Below the pieces are notes generated by a model, which worked only from the letters and a program-made list of their open reading frames with translations, searched no databases and was not told the DNA's origin. The position numbers and the translations under genes were made by a program. A stretch of 64,000 nucleotides of DNA from the NCBI RefSeq assembly GCF_009931435.1, contig NZ_CP043414.1. One strand, given 5' to 3'. Source of the DNA: Escherichia coli. GTDB taxonomy: Bacteria > Pseudomonadota > Gammaproteobacteria > Enterobacterales > Enterobacteriaceae. Positions 5,283 to 51,908 of this stretch are shown here, in pieces. Within the stretch, counting starts at the first letter, position 1. Each line of letters begins with the position of its first letter.

Positions 5283-6392
5283 ATGACGCAGAATATCTAT
5301 CAACAACTGGGGCTGAAACAAGTGATTAACGCTTGCGGTAAGATGACGATTCTCGGCGTCTCCAGTGTCGCGCCGGAGGTGATGCAGGCCACCGCGCGTG
5401 CGGCATCCTCTTTCGTGGAGATTGATCAGCTGGTGGACAAAACCGGCGAGCTGGTCTCTCGCTTTACCGGGGCGGAGGATAGCTACGTTACCTCCTGCGC
5501 CTCGGCAGGGATCGCCATCGCTATCGCCGCCGCCATTACCCGCGGCGACAAGGCCCGGGTGGCGCTCATGCCGGATAGCTCCGGCATGGCCAATGAAGTG
5601 GTGATGCTGCGCGGCCATAACGTCGATTACGGCGCATCGATCCTCAGCGCGATCCGCTTAGGCGGCGGGCGCGTGGTGGAGGTGGGGTCAAGTAACCTGG
5701 CGGCTCTCTGGCAGCTGGAGAGTGCCATTACCGACGCGACCGCCGCGCTGCTGTATGTGAAGTCGCATCACTGCGTGCAGAAGGGGATGTTGAACATCGA
5801 GGACTTCGCCCAAGTCGCGCAGATGCACAACCTGCCGTTGATTGTCGATGCCGCCGCCGAAGAGGATTTACGTGCCTGGGTGGTGAGCGGAGCGGATATG
5901 GTGGTCTACAGCGGCGCAAAAGCCTTTAACGCGCCTACCTCCGGGTTTATCACTGGTAAAAAAATCTGGATTGCAGCCTGTAAAGCGCAGCATTACGGCA
6001 TTGCCAGGGCGATGAAAATCGGCAAGGAGAACATGGTTGGGCTGGTTTACGCGCTGGAGAATTATCACCAGGGGCAGGCAATCATCACCGCGGAACAGCT
6101 CCAGCCAGTGGTTGAAGCGATTTCTGCGATTCACGGGTTAACGGCTGATATTGAGCAGGATGAAGCCGGGCGTGCAATCTGGCGTATTCGTATTCGGGTA
6201 AATGCGCAAGAATTTGGAGTTGCCGCTCGCGTCGTCGAAGCGCAACTGCGTGGTGGCGATATCGCGATTTATACACGGCGGTATAACCTCCACCAGGGCG
6301 TTTTTAGCCTTGATCCGCGTACGGTGGCGGATGGGGAGATGGCGCTTATCGTGGCGCGACTGAAGGAGATTGCAGATCATGCAAAAGATTAA
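5283..6392 (+). CDS. dgaE: SelA-like PLP-dependent enzyme (D-glucosaminate-6-phosphate ammonia-lyase-like)
   Basis: 369 aa; SGAKAF-type PLP-lysine region; position after EIID matches the Salmonella dga operon order. Confidence 0.7.
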   Translation: MTQNIYQQLGLKQVINACGKMTILGVSSVAPEVMQATARAASSFVEIDQLVDKTGELVSRFTGAEDSYVTSCASAGIAIAIAAAITRGDKARVALMPDSSGMANEVVMLRGHNVDYGASILSAIRLGGGRVVEVGSSNLAALWQLESAITDATAALLYVKSHHCVQKGMLNIEDFAQVAQMHNLPLIVDAAAEEDLRAWVVSGADMVVYSGAKAFNAPTSGFITGKKIWIAACKAQHYGIARAMKIGKENMVGLVYALENYHQGQAIITAEQLQPVVEAISAIHGLTADIEQDEAGRAIWRIRIRVNAQEFGVAARVVEAQLRGGDIAIYTRRYNLHQGVFSLDPRTVADGEMALIVARLKEIADHAKD

Positions 6393-7122
6393 TTTCTATC
6401 ATAATCGTGTGGCAATTAATGTGCTGGCGAAAGATATCGCCAATGCCCGTGAAATCTATGACGCCGCCGAAGGCCACGCGGTGATTGGCGTGCTTTCCGC
6501 GCAGTTCTCCTCGGTGGATGAGGGGATCCAGGAAGTTAAACGTTGGATGGCGGAAATACCGTCCATTTCAGTAGGTCTGGGGGCGGGTGACCCGGCGCAG
6601 TATTACAAAGCTGCGATGATTGCGGCGCAGATTCATCCAGCACACGTTAACCAGACCTTTACCGGTTGTGGTTTCGCGGCAGGCGCGCTTGCGACGACGG
6701 GCGGTGAGCAGACCCATGTCAACGCGCTGGTTAGCCCGACGGGAACGCCGGGCGAAGTGCTGATTTCCACTGGCGTTAGCAGCAGCCAGGGTACGCCTGC
6801 CCGCGTATCCTGCGATACGGCAGTGCGAATGATGCTAGATATGGGCGCACACGCGGCGAAGTTCTTTCCGATGGGCGGCGAGAAGTCGCTTCCGGAGCTA
6901 TACGCGCTGGCGACCACGGCGGCGCGCAATGGTATGACGCTGATTGAGCCAACCGGCGGGATTGATTTGGATAACTTCAGTGTGATTCTAAAAACTTGTC
7001 TGGAGGCGGGTGTGCCGCGCATTATGCCGCATGTTTACAGCTCGATTATAGACCCTGATACGGGATATACCCGACCGGATGATGTAGCCGTTTTGCTGAA
7101 TAAAGTGAAATCACTACTCTGA
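6379..7122 (+). CDS. dgaF: KDPG-aldolase-family protein
   Basis: AKFFPMGG and EPTGGI motifs resemble Eda FKFFPA and CPTGGI; ATG 6379 preceded by GAAGGAG (ORF track starts at TTG 6370). Confidence 0.7.
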   Translation: MQKINFYHNRVAINVLAKDIANAREIYDAAEGHAVIGVLSAQFSSVDEGIQEVKRWMAEIPSISVGLGAGDPAQYYKAAMIAAQIHPAHVNQTFTGCGFAAGALATTGGEQTHVNALVSPTGTPGEVLISTGVSSSQGTPARVSCDTAVRMMLDMGAHAAKFFPMGGEKSLPELYALATTAARNGMTLIEPTGGIDLDNFSVILKTCLEAGVPRIMPHVYSSIIDPDTGYTRPDDVAVLLNKVKSLL

Positions 7123-7138
7123 TCGGGGATTCAGGCGT

Positions 7139-7169
7139 TACCGACCTACAATTATGTTGTAGATCGGTA
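7139..7169. terminator. 13-bp stem hairpin between convergent dgaF and loiP (candidate bidirectional terminator)
   Basis: taccgacctacaa / ttgtagatcggta inverted repeat with one mismatch (G-U on the minus strand), followed by a T-rich stretch on the plus strand. Confidence 0.5.
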
Positions 7170-7177
7170 TGTCTGAC

Positions 7178-7936
7178 TTATTTTATCCCATCCGCGCTCA
7201 TACGATCGCGAATATGCTGGGCGCGTTCGGCGGATGCCGGATGGTCGTCAAACATTGAGCTTTGGCGGCCTTCTTCCAGTTTCGCCAGTTTTTCAAAGCT
7301 GGTGGCAAGACCAGCCGGGCTGATGCCGCGTTGGCGCAGAAGATCGTAAGAATAATCATCGGCTTCTGCTTCCTGGCGCTGGGAGAATTGCGAATTGACT
7401 AATTTCTCGCCCAGATCACCAAGTTGCGATTGCGATAAACTGCCGACAATCCCGCCCGCAGAGGCTGCCGCGACTCTCACGGCGTTGGTACCTAATGCAA
7501 CTTGCATCCCTTTCTTCACATGGCCTAACGCGACGTGCCCCATTTCGTGACCGATCACCGCTTCGACTTCGTTATCCGTCATCATATCCATTAGCCCGCT
7601 ATAGACGCGGATACAGCCGTTAGCCATTGCAAAGGCGTTCACATCCTTCGCCATATACACTTTGTAATTCACCGGCTGACCGTTGATATTGTTGCCTAGC
7701 GCATTGGCAATAGTTGTCAGACGTTTAGCGTATTCGCTATTGGCTGGCGCAATCGTCGCCTTGCTGTCCATCTCCTGACATGCCTGATCGCTCAGGGCTT
7801 TCACCTGCGCATCACTCAAACTGTAAGCCTGAAAAGCTTCCGCTCCTGATGAGAGCAGTCCGTTGGAGTCCATATTCTGGCAACCGGTCAGTACCGTTGC
7901 CACGCTCATTGCTACCAATAAGGCGCGAATTTTCAT
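7178..7936 (-). CDS. loiP: periplasmic M48 metalloprotease LoiP (YggG), lipoprotein
   Basis: 252 aa from MKIRALLVAMSVATVLTGC lipobox; HEMGH zinc motif; the 325-aa ORF-track version is an upstream over-extension. Confidence 0.9.
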   Translation of the reverse strand: MKIRALLVAMSVATVLTGCQNMDSNGLLSSGAEAFQAYSLSDAQVKALSDQACQEMDSKATIAPANSEYAKRLTTIANALGNNINGQPVNYKVYMAKDVNAFAMANGCIRVYSGLMDMMTDNEVEAVIGHEMGHVALGHVKKGMQVALGTNAVRVAAASAGGIVGSLSQSQLGDLGEKLVNSQFSQRQEAEADDYSYDLLRQRGISPAGLATSFEKLAKLEEGRQSSMFDDHPASAERAQHIRDRMSADGIK

Positions 7937-8213
7937 GTTTTCTCTTCCGCACAAGGTCAGGATTATTCTAAAAATGCGCCGTTTGCAGGTGAATCGACGC
8001 TCAGTCTCAGTATAAGGAAAAGCGCAGCGGACGGGCGAGCAGATTGCGCAACATGCGAGCATGATCCAGAGATTTCTGAAGCGGCAAAAGGATGTTCCAT
8101 GTACATGACGCGCGGCTTGCGGTAAATTGTTGGCAAATTTTCCGGCGTAGCCCAAAACGCGCTGTCGTCAAGTCGTTAAGGGCGTGCCCTTCATCATCCG
8201 ATCTGGAGTCAAA

Positions 8214-10205
8214 ATGTCCTCACGTAAAGAGCTTGCCAATGCTATTCGTGCGCTGAGCATGGACGCAGTACAGAAAGCCAAATCCGGTCACCCGGGTGCC
8301 CCTATGGGTATGGCTGACATTGCCGAAGTCCTGTGGCGTGATTTCCTGAAACACAACCCGCAGAATCCGTCCTGGGCTGACCGTGACCGCTTCGTGCTGT
8401 CCAACGGCCACGGCTCCATGCTGATCTACAGCCTGCTGCACCTCACCGGTTACGATCTGCCGATGGAAGAACTGAAAAACTTCCGTCAACTGCATTCCAA
8501 AACTCCGGGCCACCCGGAAGTGGGTTACACCGCTGGTGTGGAAACCACTACAGGTCCGCTGGGTCAGGGTATTGCCAATGCAGTCGGTATGGCGATTGCA
8601 GAAAAAACGCTGGCGGCACAGTTTAACCGTCCGGGCCACGACATCGTCGACCACTACACCTACGCCTTCATGGGCGACGGCTGCATGATGGAAGGCATCT
8701 CCCATGAAGTTTGCTCTCTGGCGGGTACGCTGAAGCTGGGTAAACTGATTGCGTTCTACGATGACAACGGTATCTCTATCGATGGTCACGTTGAAGGCTG
8801 GTTCACCGACGACACCGCAATGCGTTTCGAAGCTTACGGCTGGCACGTTATTCGCGGCATCGACGGTCATGACGCGGCATCCATCAAACGCGCAGTAGAA
8901 GAAGCGCGCGCAGTGACTGACAAACCGTCCCTGCTGATGTGCAAAACCATCATCGGTTTCGGTTCACCGAACAAAGCCGGTACGCACGACTCCCACGGTG
9001 CGCCGCTGGGCGACGCTGAAATTGCCCTGACCCGCGAACAGCTGGGCTGGAAATATGCACCGTTCGAAATCCCGTCTGAAATCTATGCTCAGTGGGATGC
9101 GAAAGAAGCAGGCCAGGCGAAAGAATCCGCATGGAACGAGAAATTCGCTGCTTACGCCAAAGCTTATCCGCAGGAAGCCGCTGAATTTACCCGCCGTATG
9201 AAAGGCGAAATGCCGTCTGACTTCGATGCCAAAGCGAAAGAATTCATCGCTAAACTGCAGGCTAATCCGGCGAAAATCGCCAGCCGTAAAGCGTCTCAGA
9301 ATGCGATTGAAGCGTTCGGCCCGCTGTTGCCGGAATTCCTCGGCGGCTCTGCTGACCTGGCACCGTCTAACCTGACCCTGTGGTCTGGTTCTAAAGCAAT
9401 CAACGAAGATGCTGCGGGTAACTACATCCACTATGGTGTTCGCGAGTTCGGTATGACCGCGATTGCTAACGGTATCTCCCTGCACGGTGGCTTCCTGCCG
9501 TACACCTCCACCTTCCTGATGTTCGTGGAATACGCACGTAACGCCGTACGTATGGCTGCGCTGATGAAACAGCGTCAGGTGATGGTTTACACCCACGACT
9601 CCATCGGTCTGGGCGAAGATGGCCCGACTCACCAGCCGGTAGAGCAGGTCGCTTCTCTGCGCGTGACCCCGAACATGTCCACATGGCGTCCGTGTGACCA
9701 GGTTGAATCCGCGGTCGCGTGGAAATACGGCGTTGAGCGTCAGGACGGCCCGACTGCGCTTATCCTCTCCCGTCAGAACCTGGCGCAGCAGGAACGCACT
9801 GAAGAGCAGCTGGCAAACATCGCGCGCGGTGGTTATGTGCTGAAAGACTGTGCCGGTCAGCCGGAACTGATCTTCATCGCTACCGGTTCTGAAGTTGAAC
9901 TGGCGGTTGCTGCCTACGAAAAACTGACTGCTGAAGGCGTGAAAGCGCGCGTGGTTTCCATGCCGTCTACCGACGCATTCGACAAGCAGGATGCGGCTTA
10001 CCGTGAGTCTGTACTGCCGAAAGCGGTTACTGCACGCGTTGCGGTGGAAGCTGGCATTGCTGACTACTGGTACAAGTATGTTGGCCTGAACGGTGCTATC
10101 GTCGGCATGACCACCTTCGGTGAATCTGCTCCGGCAGAGCTGCTGTTTGAAGAGTTCGGCTTCACCGTTGACAATGTTGTTGCGAAAGCAAAAGAACTGC
10201 TGTAA
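8214..10205 (+). CDS. tktA: transketolase 1
   Basis: 663 aa starting [12 protein letters not shown]; ATG 8214 with GGAG upstream; the ORF-track start at 8184 is an over-extension. Confidence 0.97.
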
Positions 10206-10227: not shown

Positions 10228-10423
<196 letters not shown>

Positions 10424-10425
<2 letters not shown>

Positions 10426-11332
10426 ACTTAGTAGAGATAAACGGAACTGTACTGCCGGGGATCATGGTATCGGGTAGCTTACCGTCCCAACGCTCAGCAG
10501 TGGTGAGGGCAACAAGTCCGGGATTATCCCGCAGAGCTTCACCGCGCAGGCGGATCGCTTCTGCTTCAGCCGCACTTTTTAAACGAATAGTTTCAGCCTC
10601 TGCCGCGCCTCTTACGCGAATAGTCTCAGCTTCTGCTTTGGCTGCCGCCAGTTTACTGTCTGCTTCTGCCTGGGCCTGAGTTACCGCTATTTGCGCCTGG
10701 ATTTTCTCTGTTTCCAGATTTTGCTTACGTGTGGCAATGGCGACTTCTGCTTTCATTCGATCTTCAATCGATTTTTCATAAGCGTCAGAAAAATCAATAT
10801 TTTCAATCTGGACACCATCAATCACCACCGGGCCAACAACGGCTTTACGCATTGCATTTTGCAGATCCTGAACCAGTTTTGTACGATCCTGTACCGCGCT
10901 GATGGCGGTATATTGGCCGAAAACGTTCTCCAGTTGGGTTGGCAGCTGGCGGACGATCAGACGCTCTTTTAAAGATTCAATGGTGTTGTAGGTTGTATAA
11001 ACTGCGCCAGCTTCTGAAGGCTTAATATGAAAACTAACCGACACGGTCATTTGTGCCGGTTGCTGGTCGCGGCTGTAGGCCTGTAATCCCTGATAAACCA
11101 CAGCCTGATTACGCGTGGAAATTTTCTCTACGCTTTCCATAAAAGGGATCTTAAAACCCAGACCCGGCTCGGCAACTTTTACGATTTTTCCGTAGCGCAG
11201 CAAAATGCCGCGTTCACCTTCATTAACGGTGTAATACGAGAGAAATGGCAGCACAACCACGGTAAGCACGCCAATGGCGATAGCAATAGATTTTTGTGGG
11301 CGAAATGAGGTTATTGAAACAGGCGCTTTCAT
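10424..11332 (-). CDS. SPFH/band-7 (prohibitin/stomatin-like) membrane protein
   Basis: 302 aa; N-terminal TM segment, SPFH-like core, C-terminal Ala/Glu-rich repeats (AEAETIRVRGAAEAETIRLKSAAEAEAIRLRGEA); not in the K-12 tktA-cmtB gap as I recall it. Confidence 0.8.
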
Positions 11333-30191: not shown

Positions 30192-31187
30192 TTAATCAAA
30201 ATATTGCGTCTGGATAAATTCACTGAGCTGTCGCAGGCCGGTGCGCGGTGAGAGCGTATTGTTTTTGACCGCTAAAAGCGTCTGGCGGTAATAGCGATCG
30301 AAATCTTCATTCGCGAACAGGTGATTCAGTACTTCTTCTTCGGTTTGTTTACGCAGCCATTCCACCGATTGTTGTTGCCGCACTTGCTGTAAACGACCAC
30401 TGGCAGTTAGCGCGGTTTTGAAGTCGATGATGGCGTGCCAGATCTCATCGATTCCACGTTTTTCCAGTGCGCTACAAGTCAGAACTCGTGGCTGCCATTC
30501 GTCGTATTTACGTCGCAGAATATGCAGGGCACTCTCGTACATATGCCGGGCAATGGCGACATTGGTATGGTTATCGCCATCGTCTTTGTTGATAACGATC
30601 AGATCTGCCACTTCCATCAGCCCCTTTTTAATCCCCTGCAGATCATCGCCGCCACCGGCAATTTGCAACGAGATAAAACAGTCCACCATGCGGGCGACTT
30701 CCGTTTCCGACTGTCCGACGCCAACCGTTTCGACAATCACTACGTCATAACCCGCCGCTTCGCATAACAGCATTAATTCCCGCGCTCGCTGACTGGCACC
30801 GCCCAGATGGCCGGAGGATGGTACCGGGCGAATAAACGCCGCCTCGGCACGCGCCAGGTCATTCATGCGGGTTTTATCTCCGAGAATGCTACCGCCAGTG
30901 ACCGGGCTGCTGGGATCGACCGCAATAACTGCAACCTTTAATCCCTCACGAATCAACAACATGCCAAAGGCTTCAAGAAAGGTGCTTTTCCCCGCACCGG
31001 GTGTGCCAGTAACGCCCAGTCGCAGGGCGTTACCGCAGTACGGCATAATGGCATCAAGTAGTTGCGTACTTAGCGCCTGATGACGCGGGTGACGGCTTTC
31101 CACCAGCGTCATGGCCTGGGCGAGCGTGGCACGCTCACCCTGACGTAAGCGGCGAATACTTTCTGCCAGCGTGGCTTCATTAATCAT
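30192..31187 (-). CDS. argK: GTPase (MeaB/ArgK family) of the methylmalonyl-CoA mutase operon
   Basis: 331 aa; P-loop GTPGAGKST; start overlaps scpA stop. Confidence 0.93.
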
Positions 31188-49069: not shown

Positions 49070-49125
49070 AACAGGAAAGTTATCTGACCGGATGCAACGA
49101 GTATTGCATCCGGTACTTCATCGAC

Positions 49126-51750: not shown

Positions 51751-51908
51751 TGTAGGCCTGATAAGACGCGTCAGCGTCGCATCAGGCATCGGATCGCAAC
51801 TGCCGGATGCGGCGTGAACGCCTTATCCGGCCTACGGGCCGCGTCCTTGGTGTGATAAAGGCACCAAATCCCAGGCATGATAAGACGCGTCAGCGTCGCA
51901 TCAGGCAA
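51751..51908. repeat. BIME: three REP elements between convergent yqfA and ygfZ
   Basis: gcctgataagacgcgtcagcgtcgcatcaggc occurs twice (direct) flanking an inverted gccggatgcggcgtgaacgccttatccggcctac. Confidence 0.8.

Follow-up and report, generated by a model that had tools for sequence, protein, structure and literature searches.

A stem-loop between the convergent genes dagF and loiP at the edge of the Escherichia dga segment

Genes and structure at the dagF-loiP junction

The stretch of Escherichia coli DNA analyzed here (the window; 64,000 nucleotides of contig NZ_CP043414.1) carries near its start the dagR-dgaABCDEF cluster, whose last gene, dagF (also named dgaF), converges on the metalloprotease gene loiP, with a gap of 55 bp (7123-7177) between the two stop codons (Table 1). 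Both products are recognized by their NCBIfam models, DagF at 352 bits (cutoff 300) and LoiP at 440.9 bits (cutoff 365). The ORFs upstream of dagF receive the NCBIfam names DagR, PTS EIIA-D (four mannose-family PTS subunits), and DgaE, with dagR truncated by the window start, and a transketolase is likewise named beyond loiP. The mechanically called loiP ORF (7178-8155, minus strand, 325 aa, TTG start) is over-extended at its 5' end, the NCBIfam match covering residues 79-322. The RefSeq annotation of E. coli 2020CK-00188 (L002; 99.3% identical) gives the order speB, dagR, PTS IIA-D, dgaE, dagF, loiP (minus strand), and tkt, and includes the same 55-bp gap. On the plus strand, the sequence across the gap reads CTC TGA (ending in the dagF stop), TCGGGGATTCAGGCGT, the left arm TACCGACCTACAA, the loop ttatg, the right arm TTGTAGATCGGTA, TGTCTGAC, TTA (the loiP stop), and TTTTATCCC.

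Table 1. Features at the dagF-loiP junction, in window coordinates
Feature	Position	Strand	Remarks
dagF/dgaF, 2-dehydro-3-deoxy-phosphogluconate aldolase	6379..7122	+	last gene of the dagR-dgaABCDEF cluster
dagF (dgaF) stop codon, TGA	7120..7122	+	precedes the 13-bp stem by 16 nt and the extended stem by 8 nt
Extended stem on the dga transcript	7131..7176	+	minimum free energy (MFE) fold; O111 strain L005 folds alike
Core palindrome, 13-bp arms TACCGACCTACAA / TTGTAGATCGGTA, 5-nt loop TTATG	7139..7169	both	arms 7139-7151 and 7157-7169
Deletion junction of E. coli WB61	7146..7147	both	1-nt microhomology, C
T-rich run TTATTTTAT, candidate U-tract of the dga transcript	7178..7186	+	reverse complement of the last two loiP codons and the stop
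loiP stop codon (TAA on the minus strand; TTA on the plus strand)	7178..7180	-	precedes the 13-bp stem of the loiP transcript by 8 nt
loiP metalloprotease	7178..7936	-	252 aa in the annotation of RefSeq relatives

The preliminary description of this DNA had placed in the gap a 13-bp stem that is perfect, with a G-U wobble, on the loiP strand, and our folding agrees with it on both counts. The arms are 92% complementary, with a single non-complementary position; on the minus strand, i.e., in loiP sense, RNAfold joins them by 13 uninterrupted pairs, one of which is U·G, whereas the plus-strand RNA has a C·A mismatch in place of this wobble. The core stem has a G+C content of 6/13 and is AU-rich beside the loop. 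On the plus strand, the structure is extended outward by eight pairs between 7131-7138 and 7169-7176, including two G·U pairs, for a total of ~20 pairs with two internal unpaired positions and an MFE of -24.3 kcal/mol for the 55-nt gap. Both strands fold better than any of their dinucleotide shuffles (z = -4.9 for plus and -5.6 for minus; 0/200 shuffles fold as well), and the z-scores of the hairpin across all tests range from -4.1 to -5.6, i.e., about -5. The entire 64 kb holds five hairpins whose stem measures 12 bp or more with no more than one mismatch and whose loop has 3-9 nt, of which the dgaF-loiP hairpin is the longest, as against 0-2 in shuffled windows; the other four, all with 12-bp stems, are located at 31080-31112, 33490-33518, 37093-37119, and 49087-49114. 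A scan of positions 6500-8500 against Rfam with E-values of up to 1 recovered no family, its sole match, to a miRNA model, being a chance one (E = 0.22; 23 bits, with the gathering score at 61).

The stem had also been described as T-tailed on the dga strand. A T-rich run (TTATTTTAT) is indeed present, but it begins 9 nt past the 13-bp stem, lies inside the codons of loiP, and abuts the structure only by way of the extended plus-strand stem, from which it is separated by one unpaired C; moreover, it is interrupted by A's. Its sequence changes with the lineage, being TTATTTTAT in the window and Escherichia sp. MOD1-EC7003 (L009), TTACTTTAT in E. coli WB61, and TTACTTAAC in three typical dga+ E. 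coli (L005-L007), and the complete sequence 3' of the extended stem is, correspondingly, CUUAUUUUAU, UUACUUUAU, and UUACUUAAC. The U content of this tail is 7/9 in the window, 6/9 in WB61, which has lost the dga segment, and 4/9 in the three typical dga+ strains. A tail score in the manner of d'Aubenton-Carafa/TransTermHP, calculated by hand, is marginal for the plus strand when the count starts at the first unpaired base. The plus strand lacks an A-tract ahead of the stem, the stem is followed on the loiP strand by ACGCCUGAAUCCCCGAUCAG with no U-tract, and a consensus terminator scan called a site on neither strand. Given that the loiP strand lacks a U-tract, the hairpin is not a canonical loiP terminator and, by extension, not a canonical bidirectional one, so that the bidirectional termination suggested for it at the outset is not supported in its intrinsic form; on the dga strand, it would be at best a marginal and lineage-dependent intrinsic terminator.

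The edge of the dga segment and its alleles

Of 5426 complete E. coli genomes, 5425 match a 1-kb query that spans the junction, but dagF is placed next to loiP in only 562 (~10%). Among the matches listed, the alignment of the dga-less E. coli to the window starts right at the loiP stop (7178) or, in more divergent alleles, ~10 bases inward (7182-7188), and a base-level comparison with K-12 and strain C9 puts the same edge at the loiP stop. The stop-to-stop gap between speB and loiP consists of 205 bp of REP/BIME repeats in K-12 and 429 bp of such repeats in C9, and the path from speB to loiP in dga+ genomes comprises 258 bp, then seven genes, and then the 55-bp gap. The BIME and dga alleles share no sequence from the first base past either stop codon; between K-12 (BIME allele) and O111 strain 12A (dga allele), loiP itself differs at just 4/759 positions (0.53%; 99.5% identical). 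On the evidence of these alignments, the breakpoint is sharp and falls at 7177/7178, 8 bp from the stem. With the breakpoint at the loiP stop, the hairpin is wholly on the dga-specific side, whose final element it forms.

The hairpin had been proposed to mark the likely boundary of an island. The boundary itself is borne out by the comparison with dga-less genomes, as homology begins at the loiP stop, beside the hairpin; the term 'island', however, is a loose one for this segment. It comprises only dagR and the six dga genes, with no integrase, transposase, or tRNA in or beside it and no direct or inverted repeats of at least 8 nt between its ends. Compared to O111-type E. coli, the dga genes of the window are 2.2-3.0% divergent and the flanking loiP and tkt 2.9-3.4% divergent, and the divergence from Escherichia sp. 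MOD1-EC7003 is ~3% overall. Since the dga genes have diverged to about the same degree as the core, they represent an old allele and not a recent insertion, with the segment having been long inherited along with its flanks or moving together with them by homologous recombination. The BIME allele is likewise old, as it is also present in E. albertii, E. whittamii, and Escherichia sp. E1V33. Judging from this pattern of divergence, 'old presence/absence allele' fits the dga segment better than 'island'.

At the opposite end of the segment, outside the window and just past speB (1849-1900 in L002 and L005), there is a further hairpin, TTTCCCGGTGTG...CATGCCGGGAAA, with a ~12-bp stem located 11 nt after the speB stop. 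Hairpins thus occur at both ends of the segment, which means that each of the flanking core genes has its own stop-proximal hairpin in the dga allele.

A third, rare allele is seen in E. coli WB61 (1/5426 genomes), where the whole dga segment is deleted and the speB-loiP gap measures 46 bp (L004, 3987-4032). This gap is made up of the 15 nt following the speB stop (TTTACTAAATATTTC, identical to the left junction of the dga+ strain L005) joined to window positions 7146/7147-7177. Each endpoint falls within the left arm of one of the two hairpins flanking the dga segment, the one on the dgaF side at C/TAC. WB61 retains the loop, the right arm, and the inner 6-7 nt of the left arm, and this remnant can form a 7-bp stem of about -7.5 to -11.7 kcal/mol (z = -1.6 to -2.2). 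Its rarity and its exact match to both dga+ junctions indicate that it is a deletion derivative and not the ancestral empty site; the latter is improbable because the insert would have needed to bring along 6-7 outer left-arm nucleotides already complementary to the right arm. As WB61 gets by with a 7-bp stem, at least one strain can do without the full hairpin.

The genes around the junction show polymorphism of their own. Among E. coli-labelled genomes (L001, L003, L008), loiP is unusually polymorphic, with K-12 differing from C9 by 6.9% and from the GTDB representative by 8.2%, and the neighboring tkt differs by ~3%; the high polymorphism of loiP suggests imported or mosaic alleles around the speB-loiP gap. 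Between tkt and cmtB, the window has an ORF for a 302-aa prohibitin-family protein (10424-11332, minus strand), which is annotated in L002, L003, and L004 and is missing from the annotated tkt-cmtB interval of K-12 and O111 (L001, L005); it is a second presence/absence polymorphism beside the same core genes as dga. A REP-like match, GTCGGATGCGGCGT, is found just past tkt (10278-10291).

Distribution of the hairpin and of its counterparts

Of the E. coli genomes, 564 have the hairpin, each at a single place, and the others lack it. All 562 dga+ complete E. coli genomes carry the 55-bp gap at an identity of at least 99%, and Escherichia sp. MOD1-EC7003 carries it at 100%; it is the same in the window, O111-type E. 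coli, and MOD1-EC7003, lineages that are 2.3-3.0% apart elsewhere. Yet 14.8% of the 55-bp windows in the same six-sequence 10-kb alignment are equally invariant, so the invariance of the gap is no sign of special constraint, and as it extends to every available lineage, it offers no covariation support for the stem. A search for further copies in the 64-kb window, allowing up to three mismatches, found none; plasmids yielded a chance 25-nt match only, and 87 Enterobacteriaceae loci (1.4 Mb of other loci) only chance 11-12-mers. Hence, a repeat family is ruled out, the hairpin being single-copy in each genome and absent from the other loci and plasmids.

A LoiP-based scan with one genome per species provided 80 Enterobacteriaceae loci for comparison, of which only that of MOD1-EC7003 has dga next to loiP. 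In 58/80 loci, speB was detected within ~10 kb downstream of loiP and is invariably convergent to it, with a gap of less than 480 bp in 52 of the 58 (41-323 bp in size). Nearly all of these 52 short gaps hold some palindromic element, as judged by eye, and the fillers, which are unrelated to one another and reach from stop to stop, comprise REP/BIMEs (in Escherichia, Citrobacter, and Salmonella), ERIC-like elements of ~127 bp, boxC-like repeats, and simple GC hairpins with or without T-runs, certain of which (L077, L078, L081) have A/T-runs on both sides. The hairpin of the window has no look-alike among them. No intergenic base of the speB-loiP gap (L008-L087; ~10757-11100 in most loci) is conserved between genera. 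The recurrence of palindromes of any sequence at this position is an argument that the gap needs or tolerates a structured element. We also considered the hairpin as the ancestral terminator of loiP, and this was ruled out since 0/79 species representatives without dga at the site have it downstream of loiP; among the dga-less alleles at the site, WB61 alone keeps half of it.

The DgaF homologs of Citrobacter and Salmonella are 85-87% identical and are encoded in other genomic contexts, with rpn-like (Transposase_31), lipoprotein, and EamA genes downstream of dgaF in all three clusters and mgtC in Salmonella. The Rpn-family (Transposase_31) gene follows these dga clusters (L088-L091, 3955-4909) at a chromosomal site other than that of the Escherichia dga genes. 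Each of these dgaF genes is directly followed by a hairpin of its own, namely two classic terminators with a GC stem and a T-run and, in Salmonella, a tail-to-tail REP pair. These have the same place in the operon, after the dgaF stop, and the same likely role as the hairpin of the window, but differ from it in their unrelated sequence and in their genomic context; an element travelling with dgaF is, accordingly, ruled out. Taken across these loci, a hairpin after dgaF or between speB and loiP is the rule, with no conservation of its sequence, and the version in the window is specific to the Escherichia dga allele at speB/loiP.

Proposed role and alternative explanations

The stem-loop is non-randomly stable and lies between convergent genes beside the breakpoint, with no U-tract on the loiP strand; from these features, we infer that the palindrome is probably an ordinary 3'-end hairpin, a stable terminal stem-loop that both convergent transcripts would share. 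Under this proposal, the dga operon (sigma-54/DagR-controlled; plus strand) and loiP (minus strand) would both end in the hairpin. The dga transcript would form the ~20-bp extended stem followed by UUAUUUUAU, which might act as a marginal intrinsic terminator in the lineage of the window, with termination expected to be weaker where the tail reads UUACUUAAC. The loiP transcript would form the 13-bp stem, which, as it lacks a U-tract, most likely does not terminate on its own. Rho-dependent termination followed by 3'-end trimming is an established process, and on this basis the hairpin could block 3'-to-5' exonucleases on a loiP transcript terminated by Rho in the untranslated antisense of dagF. 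With both units active, the hairpin may additionally position the polymerases for a collision-assisted bidirectional termination. The hairpin would, in effect, do the job performed at the same position by REP/BIMEs in dga-less Escherichia, or by other hairpins, REPs, and ERIC-like elements elsewhere. With the stop codons only 8-16 nt from the structure, terminating ribosomes must partly unwind it; stop-proximal REP hairpins are said to lower the expression of the upstream gene, reportedly a finding of Liang, Rudd and Deutscher from 2015. Our literature search for transcript ends at loiP/speB, or for dga in E. coli, found nothing specific.

Elements of this kind have parallels in other convergent gaps. 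The Wang/Liu preprint (10.1101/2022.10.23.513370), in a passage drawing on Ju et al., 2019, states that bidirectional terminators between convergent E. coli genes need stem-loops and 'do not resemble intrinsic terminators'; a stem-loop without a U-tract located between convergent genes can still join in bidirectional termination of the collision type. The overlapping bidirectional terminators of Ju et al., 2019, like the junction in the window, combine a stem-loop in a short convergent gap with at least one strand devoid of an intrinsic signature. The stem-loop of those terminators is said to be needed to fix the point of collision; the junction in the window shares with them the stem-loop and the convergent layout. 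Unlike the pairs of Ju et al., the dga operon is inducible and probably usually silent, such that head-on collisions with loiP transcription would be rare. A second parallel is furnished by REPs, which are described as combined partial terminators and mRNA stabilizers and occur in ~30% of convergent gaps (Harris et al., 2026, preprint 10.64898/2026.03.23.713779). Akin to the hairpin, REP/BIME 3' UTR elements sit directly past the loiP stop between convergent genes in dga-less Escherichia. The hairpin is ordinary and previously undescribed, and its kind is well known: some palindrome occupies the speB-loiP gap of almost every Enterobacteriaceae species examined, its sequence being freely replaced. 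What the locus offers is a base-level right-hand boundary (7177/7178) for the optional D-glucosaminate operon of Escherichia and a candidate 3'-end element for dga and loiP, which matters little beyond annotation.

The principal alternative on the functional side is that of a canonical bidirectional intrinsic (Rho-independent) terminator that releases the dga and loiP transcripts by itself. The stable and symmetric stem between convergent genes would suit such a terminator, as would the T-rich run that follows it on the plus strand in the lineage of the window, where the dga strand shares with canonical Rho-independent terminators a stable stem with UUAUUUUAU within 1-2 nt. It departs from them in that the ~20-bp stem is interrupted and longer than is typical, and in that the tail is interrupted, coding, and variable between lineages, down to 4/9 U in the three typical dga+ E. 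coli. Along with the AU-rich pairs by the loop (6/13 G+C), the missing upstream A-tract on the plus strand, the tail-less loiP strand with its ACGCCUGAAUCCCCGAUCAG, and the negative scan of both strands, this makes such a terminator improbable. It is still harder to view the hairpin as a chance palindrome without a role: the absence of covariation and a conservation no higher than the background are compatible with it, but a stem of this kind is expected ~0.8 times per 64 kb and ~7 × 10–4 times in a given 55-bp gap, folding is about 5 standard units (z) below that of shuffles, and hairpins are the rule in the speB-loiP gap and after dgaF in other taxa, all of which renders pure chance very improbable. 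We assign similarly slight odds to a recombination or attachment site, i.e., a substrate or scar of the insertion or excision of dga by a site-specific recombinase, an IS200/IS605-like element, or a REP-associated Y1 transposase. The hairpin does lie at the very edge of the variable segment, and the only known dga deletion, that of WB61, ends inside its left arm (C/TAC) and inside the left arm of the speB-side hairpin. Against this, the WB61 junction has a mere 1-nt microhomology and is a singleton among 5426 genomes, the segment has neither an integrase, a transposase, or a tRNA nor end repeats of at least 8 nt, and the match between dga and core divergence speaks for stable inheritance.

The remaining alternative concerns the origin of the hairpin and is compatible with the 3'-end hairpin that we prefer. 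It holds that the arms are the tails (...TTAYCNGRYCTAC / GTAGRYCNGRTAA...) of two inverted REPs whose stems have decayed, be their function kept or not. Both arms contain exact 9-mers of REP tails, CCGACCTAC as in K-12 and C9 and GTAGATCGG, the reverse complement of the CCGATCTAC tail in L008. GCGTTA-CCGACCTACA agrees with a REP of strain C9 at 15/17 positions, and a 34-nt alignment over a whole REP reaches 71% identity (E = 0.044 in a 634-nt target set). The facing CTAC/GTAG boxes, in a CTAC-9 nt-GTAG layout, mirror REP junctions of the tail-to-tail type in K-12 (11 nt) and Citrobacter (14 nt), and the REP pair after the Salmonella dgaF points in the same direction. However, the resemblance is weak in shuffle tests (left arm, p = 0.014-0.066; right arm, p = 0.32; entire gap, p = 0.29) and cannot be called significant, and a REP's own stem is not recognizable at the hairpin. 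Further, the would-be right REP falls inside the loiP coding sequence and the would-be left one overlaps the dagF stop, and the element is single-copy in E. coli genomes, while neither plasmids nor 1.4 Mb of other Enterobacteriaceae loci contain it. The hairpin is not a member of the REP/BIME family, as it is single-copy and without the REP stem consensus, and we consider descent from REPs rather unlikely. A bolder version, for which we see only a quite slim chance, has the hairpin as the minimal survivor of a REP doublet with facing GTAG/CTAC tails, such tail junctions serving as the joints at which speB-loiP cassettes are swapped from stop to stop. If so, the exchanged cassettes would be the BIME array, the 7.6-kb dga operon, or the 46-bp stub, and a REP-associated Y1 transposase might take part.

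REP sequences are also seen elsewhere in the window: matches to the REP consensus in alternating orientation at 51756-51906 look like a BIME array, and isolated exact REP matches occur at other positions, including ~24157 and ~48243.
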